Source: Escherichia coli
GTDB lineage: Bacteria; Pseudomonadota; Gammaproteobacteria; Enterobacterales; Enterobacteriaceae
Direction: 5' to 3' (one strand)
Assembly (NCBI RefSeq): GCF_013122565.1
Contig: NZ_CP053258.1
DNA: 64,000 nucleotides
The notes under the pieces are model-generated. The model was not told the DNA's origin, searched no databases, and worked only from the letters and a program-made list of their open reading frames with translations. Each line of letters begins with the position of its first letter. Position 1 is the first letter of the stretch. The translations under genes were made by a program, and so were the position numbers. Below, one piece after another: positions 6,428-44,882 of the stretch.

Positions 6428-7417
6428 TTAGCCGCCAATGTACGATAAGTTTTGTGTAATACCGGTGTTGTTTTGATGCAGGAAATGGGTCTGTTTCTTC
6501 TCCCGCAGCGCCGCTGAAATACGCGCTTCCAGCGCCTGTTGCTGGGTATCGTCTTCCAGCAGATCGCGCAGGTTAACGCCGCCCTCACCAAACAGGCAGA
6601 GATGGAGTTTACCAATGGAGGAAACGCGCAGGCGGTTGCAAGTGGCGCAGAAGTCTTTTTCATACGGCATGATAAGGCCAATCTCTCCAGCGTAATCCGG
6701 ATGACAAAAGACTTGCGCGGGACCGTCGCTGCGTTGACGTAATTGGTGGATCCAGCCGCGACGCAGTAGCTCGTCACGCAGAACCTGACCAGAGATGTGA
6801 TGCTTACGGAAGAGCTCGCTGCCCTCGCCCGTTTCCATCAGTTCGATGAAACGCAGCTGGATGGGACGATGCTGGATCCAGTCCAGAAAGGTGTCGAGCT
6901 GGTGATGGTTGACATCGCGCATCAGCACGGTATTGACTTTGACCTTCTCAAAACCGGCCTCAAATGCAGCATCGATCCCTGCCATGACCTGGTTGAATTT
7001 ATCCTGCCCGGTAATGGCATGAAACTGGCGAGCGTCGAGACTATCAACACTGACGTTAATGCCAGTAAGTCCCGCATCGCGCCAGTTCGCCACGTCGCGT
7101 TCCAGACGGTAACCATTGGTGGTGACCGCAATCTGACAGATAGCGTTGTTTTCCCGCACAGCGGCGATGATATCGGTAAAGTCGCGGCGTAAAGACGGCT
7201 CACCGCCTGTCAGGCGCACTTTTTCGGTGCCCAGACTGGCGAAGGCGCGCGTAACCCGGCGAATTTCATCGACGGTAAGGAAGCCTTTATTGGTGACGCC
7301 GCTCGGTTTGTAGCCTTCCGGCAGGCAGTAGGTGCAACGAAAGTTACACACATCGGTAATCGACAGGCGCAAGTAGTAAAACTTACGCGCAAATGCATCA
7401 GTCAGTTGTGAAGCCAT
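6428..7417 (-). CDS. moaA: GTP 3',8-cyclase MoaA (radical SAM), 329 aa
   Basis: ORF 6428..7498 with start at MASQLTDAF; CxxxCxxC motif (CNFRCTYC). Confidence 0.93.
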
Positions 7418-7419
7418 GT

Positions 7420-7570
7420 ACACCTTTCCAGATACGGGAGGCGAAGTCATTTCTTCCTTCGCCCTGGTGGCAATCTTTACGAGCATTGTCACGGCCAAAG
7501 CACCGTATCAGTTGACCCAGGTGCAGAGGCTAGAGTGTTTAGTAGTTAAGCCGATACTAGCGTGTAAACG
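7420..7570 (-). ncRNA. moaA 5' leader; expected position of the molybdenum cofactor (Moco) riboswitch
   Basis: Established knowledge that the E. coli moaABCDE leader carries the Moco RNA motif; leader present here but structure not folded by me; boundaries approximate. Confidence 0.5.
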
Positions 7571-8778: not shown

Positions 8779-8877
8779 TGCCGGATGCGGCGTGAACGCC
8801 TTATCCGGCCTACAAACCGCGCAAATTCAATATATTGCGGAGAAAATGTAGGCCTGATAAGCGTAGCGCATCCGGCT
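8779..8877. repeat. REP/BIME-like palindromic repeats between convergent ybhK and uvrB
   Basis: ccggatgcggcgtgaacgccttatccggcctac ... gcctgataagcgtagcgcatccggc. Confidence 0.6.
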
Positions 8878-41050: not shown

Positions 41051-42094
41051 TTATCCACGTAGTGTAGCCGCAAAATCCAGCATACGATTGAGCGGCACCA
41101 GCGCCCTCTCTCGCAGCCTCTCATCAACATGAACCTCGTGATTACTTCCTTCCTGTTCTAATGCCTCTGCGATAGCCTGAAGGCCATTCATGGCCATCCA
41201 CGGACAATGCGCGCAGCTGCGGCAGGTTGCACCCTCACCTGCGGTTGGTGCTTCCAGTAACTCTTTATCTGGCACCGCCTGCTGCATTTTGTAGAAAATA
41301 CCCCGATCGGTTGCCACAATAAGCCGCTGATGAGGCAATGCTTTTGCAGCAGCGATCAGTTGACTGGTGGAACCGACCGCATCCGCCATATCGACAATAG
41401 CTTGTGGTGATTCTGGATGCACCAGTATGGCAGCATCCGGGTATTCTTCTTGCAAGCGGGTTAACGCCTGAGTCTTAAATTCATCATGCACAATGCAGGC
41501 ACCCTGCCAGCATAAAATATCTGCGCCCGTCTGTTTTTGCACGTAACGCCCCAGATGTTTGTCGGGTGCCCAGATGATTTTTTCACCCAAACTATCCAGA
41601 TGATCAATAAGTTCGACGGCAATGCTTGAAGTTACCACCCAATCTGCCCGCGCTTTTACCGCAGCAGAAGTGTTGGCGTAGACGACGACAGTACGATCGG
41701 GATGGGCATCGCAAAATGCGTTAAATTCTTCAACAGGGCAGCCGAGATCCAGTGAACACTCAGCCTGAAGTGTCGGCATCAGAATTGTTTTTTCCGGACT
41801 GAGAATTTTGGCGGTTTCTCCCATAAATCTCACCCCAGCGACTAACAACGTAGAAGCGGGATGCTTTGCACCGAAGCGCGCCATTTCCAGAGAATCAGAA
41901 ATACAGCCACCGGTTTCTTCTGCCAGTTGTTGAATTTCGGGATCGGTATAGTAATGGGCAACCATCACCGCATTACGTTCTTTTAGCAGACGTTTTATCT
42001 TCTCGCGGTAATACGCTTTTTCATCAATGCTTAACGGCGTCGGCTTCGGGGGGAAAGGATAAATCGCCGTGTCTGGATCAAACATCACGCTCAT
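41051..42094 (-). CDS. nadA: Quinolinate synthase NadA
   Basis: 347-aa ORF, recognised. Confidence 0.95.
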
Positions 42095-42184: not shown

Positions 42185-42337
42185 AGATAGTCGAATGGTG
42201 GGGAAAAGTCACTCGAATTACGCCTAATGTGCAGGATGCGTCATTTTACGCCTAATTCTACCGACATAGAGTTGCTTGCACAGTAAGCTCTGACTATGTC
42301 ATCAGGTTTACAAAGTTAAATTGAGGGATGCCTGAAT

Positions 42338-42366
42338 AGCAAAAAAGCGCCTTTAGGGCGCTTTTT
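42338..42366 (-). terminator. Rho-independent terminator at the end of the tRNA operon
   Basis: gcgcc...ggcgc hairpin flanked by A/T runs, just downstream (minus strand) of the last tRNA. Confidence 0.7.
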
Positions 42367-42371
42367 TACAT

Positions 42372-42447
42372 TGGTGGGTCGTGCAGGATTCGAACCTGCG
42401 ACCAATTGATTAAAAGTCAACTGCTCTACCAACTGAGCTAACGACCC
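42372..42447 (-). tRNA. lysQ: tRNA-Lys (UUU)
   Basis: Exact match to remembered E. coli tRNA-Lys including CCA; name by position next to nadA. Confidence 0.95.
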
Positions 42448-42480
42448 CTTGCGGGATTATGCTGCTTTAATCATTCAGGA

Positions 42481-42556
42481 TGGTGGGTCGTGCAGGATTC
42501 GAACCTGCGACCAATTGATTAAAAGTCAACTGCTCTACCAACTGAGCTAACGACCC
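42481..42556 (-). tRNA. lysZ: tRNA-Lys (UUU)
   Basis: Identical 76-nt copy. Confidence 0.95.
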
Positions 42557-42604
42557 ATACGGGTGTTACCTGAAAGATTTCTACTCGGAACCAATCTTTA
42601 AAAT

Positions 42605-42702
42605 TGGTGGGTCGTGCAGGATGACTCGCTTCGCTCGCCCTACGGGCCGTTGCTGGCGCAACGTTATCCTTCACGCTTAACATCTGAGTTTGATGTTAAA
42701 AC
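42605..42702 (-). repeat. Spacer repeat copy 1 (ends, in transcript sense, with a 17-nt copy of the tRNA-Lys 3' end)
   Basis: tggtgggtcgtgcagga then gactcgcttcgctcgccctacgggccgttgctg...; three near-identical copies in this operon. Confidence 0.7.
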
Positions 42703-42778
42703 TGGTGGGTCGTGCAGGATTCGAACCTGCGACCAATTGATTAAAAGTCAACTGCTCTACCAACTGAGCTAACGACCC
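42703..42778 (-). tRNA. lysY: tRNA-Lys (UUU)
   Basis: Identical 76-nt copy. Confidence 0.95.
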
Positions 42779-42781
42779 GAG

Positions 42782-42857
42782 TGGTGGGTGATGACGGGAT
42801 CGAACCGCCGACCCCCTCCTTGTAAGGGAGGTGCTCTCCCAGCTGAGCTAATCACCC
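42782..42857 (-). tRNA. valZ: tRNA-Val (UAC)
   Basis: 76 nt, recognised tRNA-Val (GGGTGATTAGCTCAGCTGGGAGAGCACCTCCCTTACAAGGAGG...CCA on minus strand). Confidence 0.93.
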
Positions 42858-42908
42858 GATACTGCGCTGGATACTACAAACTACTTCCACCGAACCCACC
42901 GTAATTAG

Positions 42909-43006
42909 TGGTGGGTCGTGCAGGATGACTCGCTTCGCTCGCCCTACGGGCCGTTGCTGACGCAACGTTATCCTACACGCTTAACATCTGTCTTCGATGT
43001 TAAAAT
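42909..43006 (-). repeat. Spacer repeat copy 2
   Basis: Same element as 42605-42702 with a few substitutions. Confidence 0.7.
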
Positions 43007-43082
43007 TGGTGGGTCGTGCAGGATTCGAACCTGCGACCAATTGATTAAAAGTCAACTGCTCTACCAACTGAGCTAACGACCC
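43007..43082 (-). tRNA. lysW: tRNA-Lys (UUU)
   Basis: Identical 76-nt copy. Confidence 0.95.
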
Positions 43083-43084
43083 GG

Positions 43085-43160
43085 TGGTGGGTGATGACGG
43101 GATCGAACCGCCGACCCCCTCCTTGTAAGGGAGGTGCTCTCCCAGCTGAGCTAATCACCC
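43085..43160 (-). tRNA. valT: tRNA-Val (UAC)
   Basis: Identical to the other Val copy. Confidence 0.93.
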
Positions 43161-43195
43161 GATACTACGCTGGATACTACAACTAACTATGTTAG

Positions 43196-43295
43196 TGGTG
43201 GGTCGTGCAGGATGACTCGACTTCGTCTCGCCCTTCGGGCCGTTGCTGACGCAACGTTATCCTTCACGTTTTACTACCGCTTCCACCTTAGCGCT
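43196..43295 (-). repeat. Spacer repeat copy 3
   Basis: Same element, slightly diverged (gactcgacttcgtctcgcccttcgggccg). Confidence 0.7.
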
Positions 43296-43371
43296 TGGTG
43301 GGTCGTGCAGGATTCGAACCTGCGACCAATTGATTAAAAGTCAACTGCTCTACCAACTGAGCTAACGACCC
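43296..43371 (-). tRNA. lysT: tRNA-Lys (UUU)
   Basis: Identical 76-nt copy; first gene of the operon. Confidence 0.95.
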
Positions 43372-43535: not shown

Positions 43536-44327
43536 TTACATCGCGTTCAGACGTTTTTGCGCCTGTTTAGCGCCATCAGTACCAGGGTATTTACTGATAA
43601 CCTGCTGGTATACGGCTTTCGCTTTTGCGGTGTCACCTTTGTCCTGCATGATGACGCCGACTTTAAACATCGCATCTGCAGCCTTTGGTGACTTCGGATA
43701 GTTTTTCACTACCGAAGCAAAATAGTACGCCGCATCATCTTTTTTACCCTTGTTGTAGTTTAACTGACCCAGCCAATAATTGGCGTTTGGCAGGTAAGTT
43801 GAATCAGGGTAATTTTTGATGAAATTCTGAAATGCCACCATTGCGTCATCCTGGCGGGATTTATCCTGCACCAGCGCAATAGCTGCATTGTAATCCGTGT
43901 TTGCATCGCCGCTTTTCACCGGCGCGCCAGCATTCGCAGTACCAGCATCAGCTGTCGGCGTCGTTGATGCCGCCGCACCGCTTTGATCACCGCTGGTTGA
44001 TTGCGCCGCTGCACCACCGCTGCTGAGGCTGTCGATCTGCAACAGGATCTGCTTTTGCCGCTCCACGACCTGATTCAGTTGATACTGATTTTCCTGAATC
44101 TGACCACGCAGGGAATCAATATCGGATTGATTATCAGAGAGTTGTTGCTGGAGTTGGGTTAAAAGCTGGCTGTGAGCATTAGAAATACGCTCAAGTTGAG
44201 TGACGCGGTCTTCGACCGAGCCTGAGCCGACACTACTGATTGGTGCCTGAGCAAAAGCGGCCCAGGGGGCCGCTATACCAACCAGTAACGACAGACTCAA
44301 TAGTTGATGTCTGAAGTTACTGCTCAT
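43536..44327 (-). CDS. cpoB: Cell division coordinator CpoB (YbgF), TPR protein with signal peptide
   Basis: 263-aa ORF, recognised. Confidence 0.93.
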   Translation of the reverse strand: MSSNFRHQLLSLSLLVGIAAPWAAFAQAPISSVGSGSVEDRVTQLERISNAHSQLLTQLQQQLSDNQSDIDSLRGQIQENQYQLNQVVERQKQILLQIDSLSSGGAAAQSTSGDQSGAAASTTPTADAGTANAGAPVKSGDANTDYNAAIALVQDKSRQDDAMVAFQNFIKNYPDSTYLPNANYWLGQLNYNKGKKDDAAYYFASVVKNYPKSPKAADAMFKVGVIMQDKGDTAKAKAVYQQVISKYPGTDGAKQAQKRLNAM

Positions 44328-44336
44328 GCAATTCTC

Positions 44337-44882
<546 letters not shown>

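Follow-up and report, generated by a model that had tools for sequence, protein, structure and literature searches.

What are the three repeated elements that lie in the spacers of the lysT tRNA operon in this Escherichia coli genome, and does the operon depend on them? The window analysed here, a stretch of 64,000 nucleotides from contig NZ_CP053258.1 (assembly GCF_013122565.1), contains this operon between cpoB and nadA, with seven tRNA genes predicted by ARAGORN, all on the minus strand (Table 1). The three spacer elements are tRNA-linked repeats (TLRs), the lysT-operon members of the Rfam RtT family, a repeat class already known in E. coli since 1978 (Egan & Landy 1978 and Rudd 1999, as summarised in PMC8144298). 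TLRs are defined there by 18-19 bp at their 3' end that exactly repeat the end of the preceding tRNA or rRNA gene; no function is known for the class (PMC8144298). The elements fit this published definition exactly. Each starts at the base following the CCA of lysT, lysW or lysY, and each terminates in ATCCTGCACGACCCACCA, which is identical at 18 of 18 positions to the 3' end of tRNA-Lys. This 18-mer occurs eight times in the 64-kb window, against a chance expectation of 0.00, and every occurrence lies in the lysT operon: five are tRNA-Lys 3' ends and three are the spacer copies. The core 20-mer GCAACGGCCCGWAGGGCGAG occurs three times, once per element (0.01 expected). All three elements also score above the RF00391 (RtT) gathering score of 45. 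The combined account developed below, which joins TLR identity, a defined anatomy, an origin as processing by-products and exact loss through a direct repeat, is very likely correct.

Table 1. The lysT operon in the window, listed in the direction of transcription; motifs within elements are given in transcript sense.
Feature	Positions	Strand	Evidence or remark
lysT, tRNA-Lys(UUU), operon gene 1	43296..43371	-	ARAGORN; Rfam tRNA 79.2 bits; equals K-12 lysT
TLR 1, 100 nt, lysT-valT spacer	43196..43295	-	RtT 60.6 bits; tail 43213..43196
TLR 1 pairing strand CGTGAAGGAT, after 27-nt leader	43268..43259	-	
TLR 1 hairpin CGTTGC-GTCA-GCAACG	43256..43241	-	
TLR 1 hairpin GCCC-GAA-GGGC	43240..43230	-	
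TLR 1 small hairpin GAC-GAA-GTC, then 18-nt tRNA-Lys tail	tail 43213..43196	-	
Distal lysT-valT spacer, 35 nt	43161..43195	-	Strain comparison; entire spacer in strains without TLR 1
valT, tRNA-Val(UAC)	43085..43160	-	ARAGORN
lysW, tRNA-Lys(UUU), starts 2 nt past valT	43007..43082	-	ARAGORN
TLR 2, 98 nt, lysW-valZ spacer	42909..43006	-	RtT 54.9 bits; tail 42926..42909
TLR 2 leader hairpin TTAACATC/GATGTTAA		-	
TLR 2 pairing strand CGTGTAGGAT	42979..42970	-	
TLR 2 hairpin CGTTGC-GTCA-GCAACG	42967..42952	-	Then GCCC-GTA-GGGC
Distal lysW-valZ spacer, 51 nt	42858..42908	-	Strain comparison; entire spacer in strains without TLR 2
valZ, tRNA-Val(UAC)	42782..42857	-	ARAGORN
lysY, tRNA-Lys(UUU)	42703..42778	-	ARAGORN
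TLR 3, 98 nt, lysY-lysZ spacer	42605..42702	-	RtT 54.4 bits; tail 42622..42605
TLR 3 pairing strand CGTGAAGGAT, after leader hairpin	42675..42666	-	
TLR 3 hairpin CGTTGC-GCCA-GCAACG	42663..42648	-	Then GCCC-GTA-GGGC
Distal lysY-lysZ spacer, 48 nt	42557..42604	-	Strain comparison; entire spacer in strains without TLR 3
lysZ, tRNA-Lys(UUU)	42481..42556	-	ARAGORN
lysZ-lysQ spacer, 33 nt, empty TLR site	42448..42480	-	K-12 comparison
lysQ, tRNA-Lys(UUU), final gene of the operon	42372..42447	-	ARAGORN
Single intrinsic terminator past lysQ (ATGTAAAAAAGCGCCCTAAAGGCGCTTTTTTGCTAT)	42336..42371	-	lysQ-nadA intergenic alignment

A preliminary description of this locus, made from the sequence alone, had recognised three repeated spacer elements ending in a copy of the tRNA-Lys 3' end, and the counts above confirm that they are real. 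Several of its particulars were altered by measurement. The shared tail is 18 nt long and not 17; the proposed size of about 98 nt applies to TLR 2 and TLR 3, but TLR 1 has 100 nt. The elements had all been assigned to Lys-to-Val spacers with tRNA-Val 35-50 nt downstream, which is correct for TLR 1 (35 nt) and nearly so for TLR 2 (51 nt), but TLR 3 occupies a Lys-to-Lys spacer and is followed after 48 nt by lysZ. The copies had further been called near-identical. This holds for their 3' 71-73 nt, where pairwise identity from the internal pairing strand through the tail is 69/73 to 69/71, but not for the 27-nt leaders. The suggested alignment of the spacers with one another and with K-12 gave full-length identities of 92/98 between elements 2 and 3 and 82-84/101 between element 1 and the other two, and of 97/100, 97/98 and 98/98 (97-100%) between TLR 1, TLR 2 and TLR 3 and their K-12 orthologues.

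K-12 carries 22 TLRs at ten loci, with one to five copies per locus (PMC8144298), and that maximum equals the five RtT-model matches found here at its lysT locus. The window elements share with K-12 TLRs the position directly 3' of a tRNA gene in a tRNA operon, the 18-nt tail of their own tRNA and the presence of several copies per locus; they differ in no respect of kind, the window simply carrying three of the five K-12 copies at lysT. The 178-bp repeats of tyrT, reportedly described by Bosl & Kersten in 1991 as RtT RNA (rttR), have the same core, GA-AACGTTGC-loop-GCAACG-GCCCGAAGGG-..-GAGT-ATCC, which is also found in Arg-, Pro-, Ser- and 5S-linked copies. They likewise have a tail-pairing strand and a tail taken from the 3' end of the upstream tRNA, and both groups exceed the Rfam gathering threshold. 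The window copies differ in that the tail is specific for Lys rather than Tyr, in being a short form (98-100 nt) without the T-arm-like hairpin found inside the Tyr repeats, and in lacking a tpr-like ORF; a processed RNA, of 171 nt, is documented for the tyrT repeat only. The lower scores of the Lys copies (54-61 bits, against 133-138 for tyrT) arise because the cmscan alignment borrows the T arm of the real upstream tRNA to fill that region of the model and then requires a 44-nt insertion. The RrA, RrB and RrF elements lie between the dual terminators of rrnA, rrnB and rrnD (PMC8144298); they too are found 3' of a stable-RNA gene and carry an 18-nt tail copy, and the fifth K-12 lysT-locus copy is similarly flanked by two terminator copies. 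The three copies in the window are instead internal spacers, lie between no dual terminators and have no GGA in a hairpin loop, and binding of Hfq and CsrA has been reported for the rRNA members only (PMC8144298). Spacer fragments of the 3'ETS-leuZ type (mentioned in PMC8144298) are also by-products of polycistronic tRNA precursors, and like them the excised elements could persist as small RNAs; the lysT spacers, however, have no known stable product, partner or phenotype, and many strains lack the elements. Since the family is known and its members are absent from many strains, the finding is an ordinary one, and as catalogued repeats the elements are of low importance for this window.

The elements share a general anatomy consisting of a variable 27-nt leader with a small hairpin, a 10-nt strand CGUG(A/U)AGGAU, a hairpin core and the tail, which spans the T loop through the CCA of tRNA-Lys. 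The conserved core hairpins are CGUUGC-NNNN-GCAACG, GCCC-GNA-GGGC and a short G(A)C-GAA-G(U)C. A reading of the elements as coding sequence was rejected, as they hold just short ORFs of 20-54 amino acids, many of which cross tRNA genes, and no counterpart of tpr. Internal promoters and terminators were also rejected, because the scan of the elements returned no promoter-like sites and only two terminator-like matches (1.2 expected by chance), both of which are the antisense of the core hairpin. The terminator past lysQ was missed by the terminator scanner and was read from the sequence and its identity to K-12. 

The predicted folds of the elements are unusually stable, at -35.5 kcal/mol (z = -3.05) for TLR 1, -38.7 kcal/mol (z = -5.03) for TLR 2 and -32.7 kcal/mol (z = -3.52) for TLR 3. 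In these predictions the 10-nt strand folds back to pair with the tail and so encloses the core in a compact domain, whose modelled end resembles the acceptor/T-arm side of a tRNA. Of the 18 tail bases, 10 are taken up by the closing helix and about 8 (7 in the TLR 1 fold) stay unpaired, and the helix is therefore not a canonical RNase P minihelix. Across 18 copies of the Lys type, taken from several genera, 95% of the cells were paired, with almost invariant stems and variable loops, and one G-C to A-U double change was present in five sequences. Because the stems hardly vary and yield one compensatory pair, covariation support within the Lys type is weak, and correction of inverted repeats in the DNA could give rise to the same pattern even if the RNA had no function. 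When lysW and TLR 2 were folded together, the predicted minimum-energy structure exchanged the partners of the tRNA 3' end and the tail, which suggests that the elements could interfere with, or modulate, folding of the precursor.

Comparison with other strains bears directly on whether the operon needs these elements. The lysZ-lysQ spacer, noted earlier (as lysQ-lysZ) to be 33 nt and possibly shorter than in K-12, is indeed shorter: it measures 132 nt in K-12 MG1655, and the difference is exactly one 99-nt element. This fourth K-12 copy lies directly past lysZ and is followed by the same 33 nt as in the window. A fifth K-12 copy, a 120-nt TLR of the long type with an RtT score of 46.7 bits, lies past lysQ between two copies of the 36-nt terminator; alignment of the lysQ-nadA intergenic region showed that the window lacks this 156-nt unit. 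Standard annotation places no label at the three TLR sites of the window; in other strains, the one copy that PGAP names ('RtT sRNA') is the long one past lysQ. Nine sequences were read, from eight E. coli strains and the window, and in these each TLR copy was either present or exactly absent, with zero to five copies per strain. The spacers accordingly occur in paired alleles with and without the element (135/35, 149/51, 146/48 and 132/33 nt), and for the 156-nt unit past lysQ, too, both states were seen. Two strains, O157:H7 BB24-1 (L127) and E1 (L128), have no copy at all. Both have a lysT-valT spacer of 35 nt, which in E1, where the sequence was read, is identical to the distal 35 nt of the window; in E1, moreover, two spacers between Lys genes measure 48 nt and have the distal sequence of the window. 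A 51-nt lysW-valZ spacer was found in these two strains and in L125, with near-identity to the window sequence in L125 and E1, and the same 51 nt occur in L126, whose Val allele fell outside the search pattern. Wherever they were read, empty spacers begin exactly at the post-tail sequence and are identical to it or differ by few substitutions. For the lysZ-lysQ site, an estimated 58% or so of complete E. coli genomes have the uninterrupted 33 nt, and roughly 33% have the K-12 form. Because copies are exactly absent from natural strains, two of which have none, the elements are therefore dispensable for the operon.

These observations would fit a simple course of events. The lysT operon is expressed as one polycistronic transcript that requires RNase P and whose long spacers are cut by RNase E (PMC4176162). 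The elements would be transcribed within this published single precursor and cut out as spacer by-products, RNase E cleaving the spacers and RNase P freeing the downstream tRNAs; such excision has been published for the operon and would extend to the elements. The tail would lend the excised piece the 3'-end determinants of a tRNA, so that the same enzymes could trim it, by analogy with RrB, the 3' end of which maps 3 nt past its tail (PMC8144298). A Northern study of the operon found few intermediates in the wild type and described no stable spacer species (PMC4176162); the excised elements may simply be degraded. They would not be required for the working of the operon. At the DNA level, the tRNA end and the tail form an 18-bp direct repeat 98-100 bp apart, which would allow exact loss of the whole unit, presumably by slippage or unequal exchange. 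Such a repeat would explain both the three of five K-12 copies in the window and the zero to five copies in other strains, and the same local recombination probably keeps the tail identical to the adjacent tRNA.

A scan of 100,044 species genomes with the core pattern yielded 120 loci and placed the window copies in a wider setting. Core and tail are conserved across Enterobacterales, with position and sequence kept in Citrobacter, Pluralibacter, Pseudocitrobacter and others, and the core is also found in other Gammaproteobacteria. In 90 elements the tail match reached 16 nt or more, and in every one of these the tail was that of the tRNA closest on the upstream side (Lys 43, Tyr 26, Arg 16, Pro 5); across genera the tail is perfect (18/18) against the upstream gene in 89 of 105 elements. 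Variant tRNA-Lys alleles are accompanied by the matching variant tail (examples are GCCCC in loci L024, L018 and L121 and T at position 6 in L028). One core is found joined to six or more different stable-RNA tails. The tail-pairing strand is type-specific too: with at most one mismatch it was detected in 27 of 43 Lys, 26 of 26 Tyr and 8 of 16 Arg elements, and cross-type matches among Lys, Tyr and Arg were near zero. These figures come from a type-specific 8-mer test, which replaced a 14-nt ungapped score of upstream-versus-tail complementarity that was dropped as too noisy because all T arms share ATCCT. Longer relatives hold, in 61 of 109 elements and for seven tRNA identities, a second type-specific T-stem 5' strand with the first part of the T loop, at a constant distance of 28-32 nt (at most 42) on the 5' side of the core motif. 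Kosakonia cowanii has a near full-length tRNA-Tyr copy in which a 66-nt core lies between the GGTTCGA and ATCC of the T loop, and two Citrobacter loci (L023, L120) share this arrangement at the level of sequence context. Insofar as the longer relatives retain the 5' half of a T arm and Kosakonia a nearly complete copy, a tRNA-derived origin of the TLR frame is plausible. The Enterobacterales host tRNAs (Lys, Tyr, Arg-ACG, Pro) share the 13-mer AGGTTCGAATCCT, which is present in 0 of 49 co-resident tRNA-Val genes and is also missing from others; a rule that only tRNAs with this 13-mer host TLRs was rejected, because it holds in Enterobacterales but breaks down for Ser-type copies in Photobacterium, Arg(CCG)-type copies in Amphritea and 5S-type copies. 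On comparative sequence grounds, the conservation of core and tail suggests selection or a renewal mechanism beyond the account of a dispensable by-product. More than 45 years after TLRs were first described, the cross-genus rule, by which the tail always corresponds to the upstream gene, the complementary strand is type-specific and the core splits the T arm in long forms, offers a concrete start for testing selfish insertions against folding modulators and by-products.

Two of the alternative explanations concern where the elements came from. The preliminary description had proposed decayed tRNA-Lys duplicates, that is, pseudogenes intact at the 3' end only. The exact 18-nt tail, the T-stem strand and T-loop start of the longer relatives and the interrupted tRNA-Tyr copy of Kosakonia, with its Citrobacter parallels, are in its favour, and as an account of the tail, and possibly of a remote ancestry, the proposal stands. 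It does not extend to the upstream part, since global alignment of the elements without their tails to positions 1-58 of tRNA-Lys gives 36-38 matches in 80-84 columns, and the spacers give no tRNA hit with ARAGORN or the Rfam tRNA model, even with the cutoff at E<=1. The same core, moreover, adjoins Tyr, Arg, Pro and Ser tails and that of 5S rRNA, and therefore cannot be decayed tRNA-Lys sequence; tails held at 18/18 while leaders diverge freely are the opposite of decay. As an explanation of these elements, decay is thus unlikely. The elements could instead be footprints of a small insertion module directed at the tRNA T loop and the 5S rRNA 3' region, in which case the tRNA end and the tail would be a duplication resembling an attachment site, left behind by an integrative or other mobile element. 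tRNA-targeting integrases leave attachment-site duplications in tRNA genes, and here too a direct repeat of the tRNA 3' part, from the T loop on, flanks an insert. The duplicated 18 nt begin at the junction of T-loop positions 58 and 59, exactly where the Kosakonia copy is broken, and the shared 13-mer of the Enterobacterales hosts, absent from tRNA-Val, would suit a target. On such a reading, TLRs would be products of a structured module that entered, or was copied into, these sites, most copies having been cut down to inverted strand, core and tail; it would explain the at least six host-specific tails on one core, the host T-arm 5' half in long forms, the interrupted tRNA-Tyr of Kosakonia (for Citrobacter from sequence context only) and the predicted swap of the tail into the tRNA. 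The TLR insert differs from attachment-site duplications, however, in being about 80 nt long, in lacking a recombinase, in occurring up to five times in one operon and in joining one core to different tails. No integrase or transposase lies near the operon, which is flanked by cpoB and nadA, and the Photobacterium Ser-type and 5S-type copies lack the 13-mer. The core was matched in 4 of 50,697 phage and 25 of 72,556 plasmid records, mostly Mb-sized and apparently chromosomal and not genuine phages or plasmids, and an origin through such vehicles was set aside. Loss accounts for all polymorphism seen, with no case of an empty site having gained a copy. We consider both the footprint reading and its fuller form, a module trimmed after entry, to be quite unlikely; if such a module were still active, or the strand swap took place in vivo, TLRs would be a new stable-RNA-targeting element or a modulator of precursor folding and not inert spacers.

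The other two alternatives give the elements a present role. The preliminary description had also raised conserved processing signals; in the form considered here, the elements would act in cis and be needed to offer the RNase E or RNase P sites at which the flanking tRNAs are separated and matured. They sit exactly in the long spacers that RNase E cuts (PMC4176162), their tails copy the 3'-end determinants of a tRNA, recognition of the RrB tail by RNase E has been proposed (PMC8144298) and they are conserved in the genera named above. A requirement nevertheless finds no support in the strains sampled: every spacer exists in natural E. coli with the element exactly removed (35, 51, 48 and 33 nt), including the strains without any copy and the estimated 58% of complete genomes without the lysZ-lysQ copy, and the Val-to-Lys junctions of 2-3 nt are processed by RNase P with no element present (PMC4176162). 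We regard this explanation as highly improbable. The excised elements might also act in trans as small RNAs, sponging proteins, as RrA, RrB and RrF may do, or RNAs, as 3'ETS-leuZ does. For RrA, RrB and RrF, processing to defined sizes and in vitro binding of Hfq and CsrA have been reported (PMC8144298), and the compact, stable predicted domains with a core conserved across genera would suit such a part. The 19 TLRs of tRNA operons, however, score below 0.01 for CsrA binding (PMC8144298), the Lys elements have their sole GGA in the closing helix and not in a loop, Northern blots with spacer probes describe no stable spacer RNA (PMC4176162), a starvation phenotype once claimed for the RNA of the tyrT repeat has been withdrawn (PMC8144298) and copy number varies between strains from zero to five. 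A trans-acting role is accordingly very unlikely, and the elements are best read as TLRs that would leave the precursor as by-products and can be lost exactly.

The lysT operon is a structural hot spot, with zero to five TLR copies among the nine sequences read. Given this variation in TLR copies and gene number, spacer-length differences at this locus are to be expected and should not be taken for assembly errors. The numbers of tRNA-Lys and tRNA-Val genes also differ among the nine sequences.

The lysT operon of the window comprises seven tRNA genes on the minus strand (42372-43371; ARAGORN), in the transcript order Lys, Val, Lys, Val, Lys, Lys, Lys, and is flanked by the ORFs cpoB (43536-44327) and nadA (41051-42094); 5,425 of 5,426 complete E. 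coli genomes match the operon region. In transcript sense the spacers measure 135, 2, 149, 3, 146 and 33 nt, and each of the three long ones opens with an element whose first base adjoins the tRNA-Lys CCA and whose last bases are a copy of ATCCTGCACGACCCACCA, the 18-mer at the end of tRNA-Lys. Of the eight window occurrences of this 18-mer, five lie in genes and three in spacers (0.00 expected by chance); a core 20-mer was found three times, with 0.01 expected. The elements, hereafter called TLR 1, TLR 2 and TLR 3 (for tRNA-linked repeat), follow lysT, lysW and lysY, respectively. Alignment gave 82-94% identity overall among them, and 97/100, 97/98 and 98/98 identical positions relative to the K-12 elements of the same spacers. 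The preliminary description of three near-identical spacer elements, each ending in a copy of the tRNA-Lys 3' end, is confirmed with small corrections. Near-identity (95-97%) begins at an internal pairing strand and continues through the tail, the 27-nt leaders being different; the copied tail is 18 nt long rather than 17; the gap to the next gene, described as 35-50 nt, measures 35, 51 and 48 nt; and that gene is tRNA-Val for the first two elements, TLR 3 standing ahead of lysZ (tRNA-Lys). The accompanying interpretation, as decayed tRNA-Lys duplicates or conserved processing signals, is partly supported.

Elements of the window, and the two states of each site among the E. coli genomes read
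Feature	Position in window	Strand	Length (with element)	Length without element
TLR 1	43295..43196	minus	100 nt	
TLR 2	43006..42909	minus	98 nt	
TLR 3	42702..42605	minus	98 nt	
lysT-valT spacer			135 nt	35 nt
lysW-valZ spacer			149 nt	51 nt
lysY-lysZ spacer			146 nt	48 nt
lysZ-lysQ spacer			132 nt	33 nt
post-lysQ unit			156 nt	absent

The Rfam model RtT (RF00391; gathering score 45) matched all three sites, with 60.6, 54.9 and 54.4 bits. On K-12 MG1655 the same model found four tyrT-locus repeats at 133-138 bits together with five lysT-locus sites. TLRs were first seen in 1978 by Egan and Landy, and the catalogue of Rudd (1999) lists 22 copies spread over ten K-12 loci, with one to five at each (both as cited in PMC8144298). 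Since the window elements match this class, the finding is a rediscovery of an already known repeat family. TLRs of tRNA operons have no known function, and a starvation phenotype once ascribed to the tyrT repeat RNA has been withdrawn (PMC8144298). The three copies look unannotated because PGAP applies the label 'RtT sRNA' only to the long copy after lysQ, in other strains, and its annotation of one genome with the arrangement of the window labelled no TLR.

Four parts can be distinguished in each window element in transcript sense: a variable leader, which is a small hairpin (in TLR 2 and TLR 3, TTAACATC/GATGTTAA), a 10-nt strand CGUG(A/U)AGGAU, a core and the tail. In the predicted fold, pairing between the 10-nt strand and the ten initial bases of the tail closes the core, which forms three small hairpins (CGUUGC-NNNN-GCAACG, GCCC-GNA-GGGC and a short G(A)C-GAA-G(U)C). 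Folding energies of -35.5, -38.7 and -32.7 kcal/mol were predicted for TLR 1, 2 and 3, with z-scores of -3.05, -5.03 and -3.52 against shuffled sequences. When 18 Lys-type copies from several genera were aligned, the stems were nearly invariant (95% of cells paired) and the loops varied, with one G-C to A-U double change in 5 of the 18. This covariation is modest and could be mimicked by inverted-repeat correction at the DNA level, so that the modelled RNA structure is likely, short of proof.

The window holds three of the five K-12 copies, and both differences are exact units between direct repeats. The suggestion that the lysZ-lysQ spacer may be shorter than in K-12 is correct: the 132-nt K-12 spacer consists of a 99-nt TLR followed by 33 nt that equal, with one substitution, the whole 33-nt window spacer. 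After lysQ, K-12 carries a 156-nt unit made of a 36-nt terminator and a 120-nt long-type TLR, then a second terminator copy, tail and terminator forming a 54-nt direct repeat (K-12 locus L001, 1854-2045). This unit is missing from the window, which has one lysQ terminator (42336-42371). The K-12 dual terminator with a TLR in between, unlike the single terminator of the window, has its counterpart in the dual-terminator TLRs of rrnA, rrnB and rrnD.

For comparison with the window, the locus was read in eight genomes, those of K-12 and seven further strains. Every TLR site shows two states among them, and the short spacers that were read match the post-tail sequence of the long allele, identical or with few substitutions. 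O157:H7 BB24-1 and strain E1 carry the operon without any TLR, and tRNA gene counts among the strains read range from 3 to 6 for Lys and are 1 or 2 for Val. For the lysZ-lysQ junction, 60 evenly spaced rows of a ranking across all genomes gave estimates of ~58% for the contiguous 33-nt allele of the window, ~33% for the K-12 allele and ~8% lacking the junction. Corresponding Lys-Val and Lys-Lys spacers hold TLRs in Citrobacter, Pluralibacter, Pseudocitrobacter and others, from which we infer that the empty E. coli sites are losses. The DNA repeats would cause exact loss of elements, 18-bp repeats 98-100 bp apart being suited to slipped mispairing or unequal exchange.

Other variation was seen in individual E. 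coli strains. Strain WCHEC96200 (L125) has single substitutions in two TLR tails (ATCCTGCACGACCTACCA and ATCTTGCACGACCCACCA), and tail drift within E. coli is therefore possible. A single base, in the variable-loop region that precedes the T stem, separates both operon tRNA-Val genes of O157:H7 FRIK804 (L126) from the window allele (GGGGGGCGGCGG versus GGGGGTCGGCGG). In strain IH5 (L129, NZ_CP168949.1) one tRNA-Lys gene and, behind it, yrdA-yrdB-aroE come after cpoB, in place of the remaining operon genes and nadA, which suggests a chromosomal rearrangement that broke within the tRNA-Lys array.

A degenerate 20-nt core motif was scanned in 100,044 species genomes, one genome per species, and at least 120 loci were found. 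Among the matches listed, a few in GC-rich genomes are due to chance and the remainder are from Gammaproteobacteria. Where the tail match reached at least 16 nt, 90 of 90 listed elements carried the tail of the nearest upstream same-strand tRNA (Lys 43, Tyr 26, Arg(ACG) 16, Pro 5), and the tail was perfect (18/18) in 89 of the 105 listed elements adjoining Lys, Tyr, Arg(ACG) or Pro tRNAs. Variant tRNA alleles were accompanied by matching variant tails, even inside one operon (locus L024; likewise L018, L121 and L028). The tail-pairing strand is type-specific among the matches listed: CGTGAAGG in 27/43 Lys elements (at most one mismatch), GGGGAAGG in 26/26 Tyr elements and a CCGGGAGG-like strand in 8/16 Arg elements, with cross-type matches among these three types almost nil. 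Enterobacterales host tRNAs have the 13-mer AGGTTCGAATCCT in common; it was found in 0 of 49 neighbouring tRNA-Val sequences, and no TLR was found after tRNA-Val. Further types adjoin tRNA-Ser(UGA) (Photobacterium) or 5S rRNA (Siccibacter loci L031, L033 and L034, and loci L104 and L109). A rule that TLR hosts share AGGTTCGAATCCT is broken by the Photobacterium Ser type, an Amphritea Arg(CCG) type and the 5S type. In the 5S-linked members (the Siccibacter loci being S. colletis) the core lies between GGCAGTT and AACTGCCAGGCAT, the 5S 3' end; at L104 and L109, where genes were mapped, the element has the 5S gene on one side and a distal tRNA (Asp or Thr) on the other.

Descent from a decayed tRNA-Lys duplicate does not account for the bulk of the elements: no tRNA-Lys similarity was found upstream of the tail in the three window elements, and the core is common to several hosts. 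The TLR frame, by contrast, looks tRNA-derived on sequence comparison. Long forms (61 of 109 elements among the matches listed) carry a second copy of the host T-stem 5' strand and first five T-loop bases upstream of the core motif, at a fixed distance of 28-32 nt (up to 42), across seven tRNA identities, so that the core splits a T arm, with GGTTCGA on one side and ATCC on the other. In Kosakonia cowanii (L020, 9840-10010, minus strand) a nearly full-length tRNA-Tyr pseudogene with a tyrT-like leader lies upstream of the tyrT genes; a 66-nt TLR core sits inside its T loop at that same junction, and the acceptor 3' strand of the pseudogene is decayed. The sequence context is the same at the Citrobacter loci L023 and L120, read only around the core. 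The long Lys form, including the fifth K-12 copy, has at its start a copy of the tRNA 3' region in inverted orientation; the three window copies are the short form, reduced to the inverted strand, some of the core and the tail.

The lysT cluster is one polycistronic transcript, from which tRNA release needs RNase P, and RNase E cuts in the long spacers (PMC4176162). For the related TLR RrB, the 3' end maps 3 nt past the tail, and the tail has been proposed to direct RNase E (PMC8144298). The Lys TLRs most likely are co-transcribed structured spacers, cut out as by-products, and the tail would give the excised piece a tRNA-like 3' end. A role as required processing signals is contradicted by the natural element-free alleles of E. 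coli. The elements might act in trans as sRNAs like RrA, RrB and RrF, the TLRs between the rrnA, rrnB and rrnD dual terminators. Against such a role, tRNA-operon TLRs have a CsrA-binding score <0.01 (PMC8144298), the predicted folds of the window elements have no GGA in any loop, and no stable spacer species from the lysT operon has been described (PMC4176162).

Three features speak against purely inert spacer by-products. Core and tail show conservation across genera. Beyond the predicted closing helix ~8 nt stay unpaired (7 nt in the TLR 1 fold), and the excised piece would accordingly not be a canonical RNase P minihelix. Partners are swapped in the minimum-energy fold predicted for lysW with TLR 2 (42909-43082, minus strand): the TLR tail pairs to the 5' acceptor strand of the tRNA, whose own 3' end pairs to the internal strand of the TLR (-67.4 versus -64.2 kcal/mol for separate folds). 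The T-loop junction and the multiple hosts make footprints of an integrative or mobile element an attractive reading; however, no recombinase was found near the operon, genuine phages and plasmids essentially lack the core, and no gain of an element was observed. We consider it improbable that an insertion module targeting the T loop gave rise to TLRs, or that TLRs modulate the folding of the precursor.

A related three-hairpin module (hairpin, ACGTCGC-loop-GCGACG, GCCCGAAGGGTGA, hairpin), with no evident tRNA tail and no Rfam match at its sites, was observed at L030 (Pseudomonas subflava), L085, L116, L117, L119, L004 (Alishewanella), L086, L005 (Aliiglaciecola) and L026 (Brenneria), and may constitute a wider, undescribed repeat superfamily in Gammaproteobacteria. 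At L086 it lies on the opposite strand, ~300 nt past the end of a 5S gene, and at L026 just upstream of one. Other Rfam matches above gathering scores in the window were the CpoB/ybgF thermometer (44298-44436, minus, 142 bits), a Moco riboswitch (7405-7549, minus, 102 bits) and the ES036 sRNA (8814-8855, plus, 43.4 bits).
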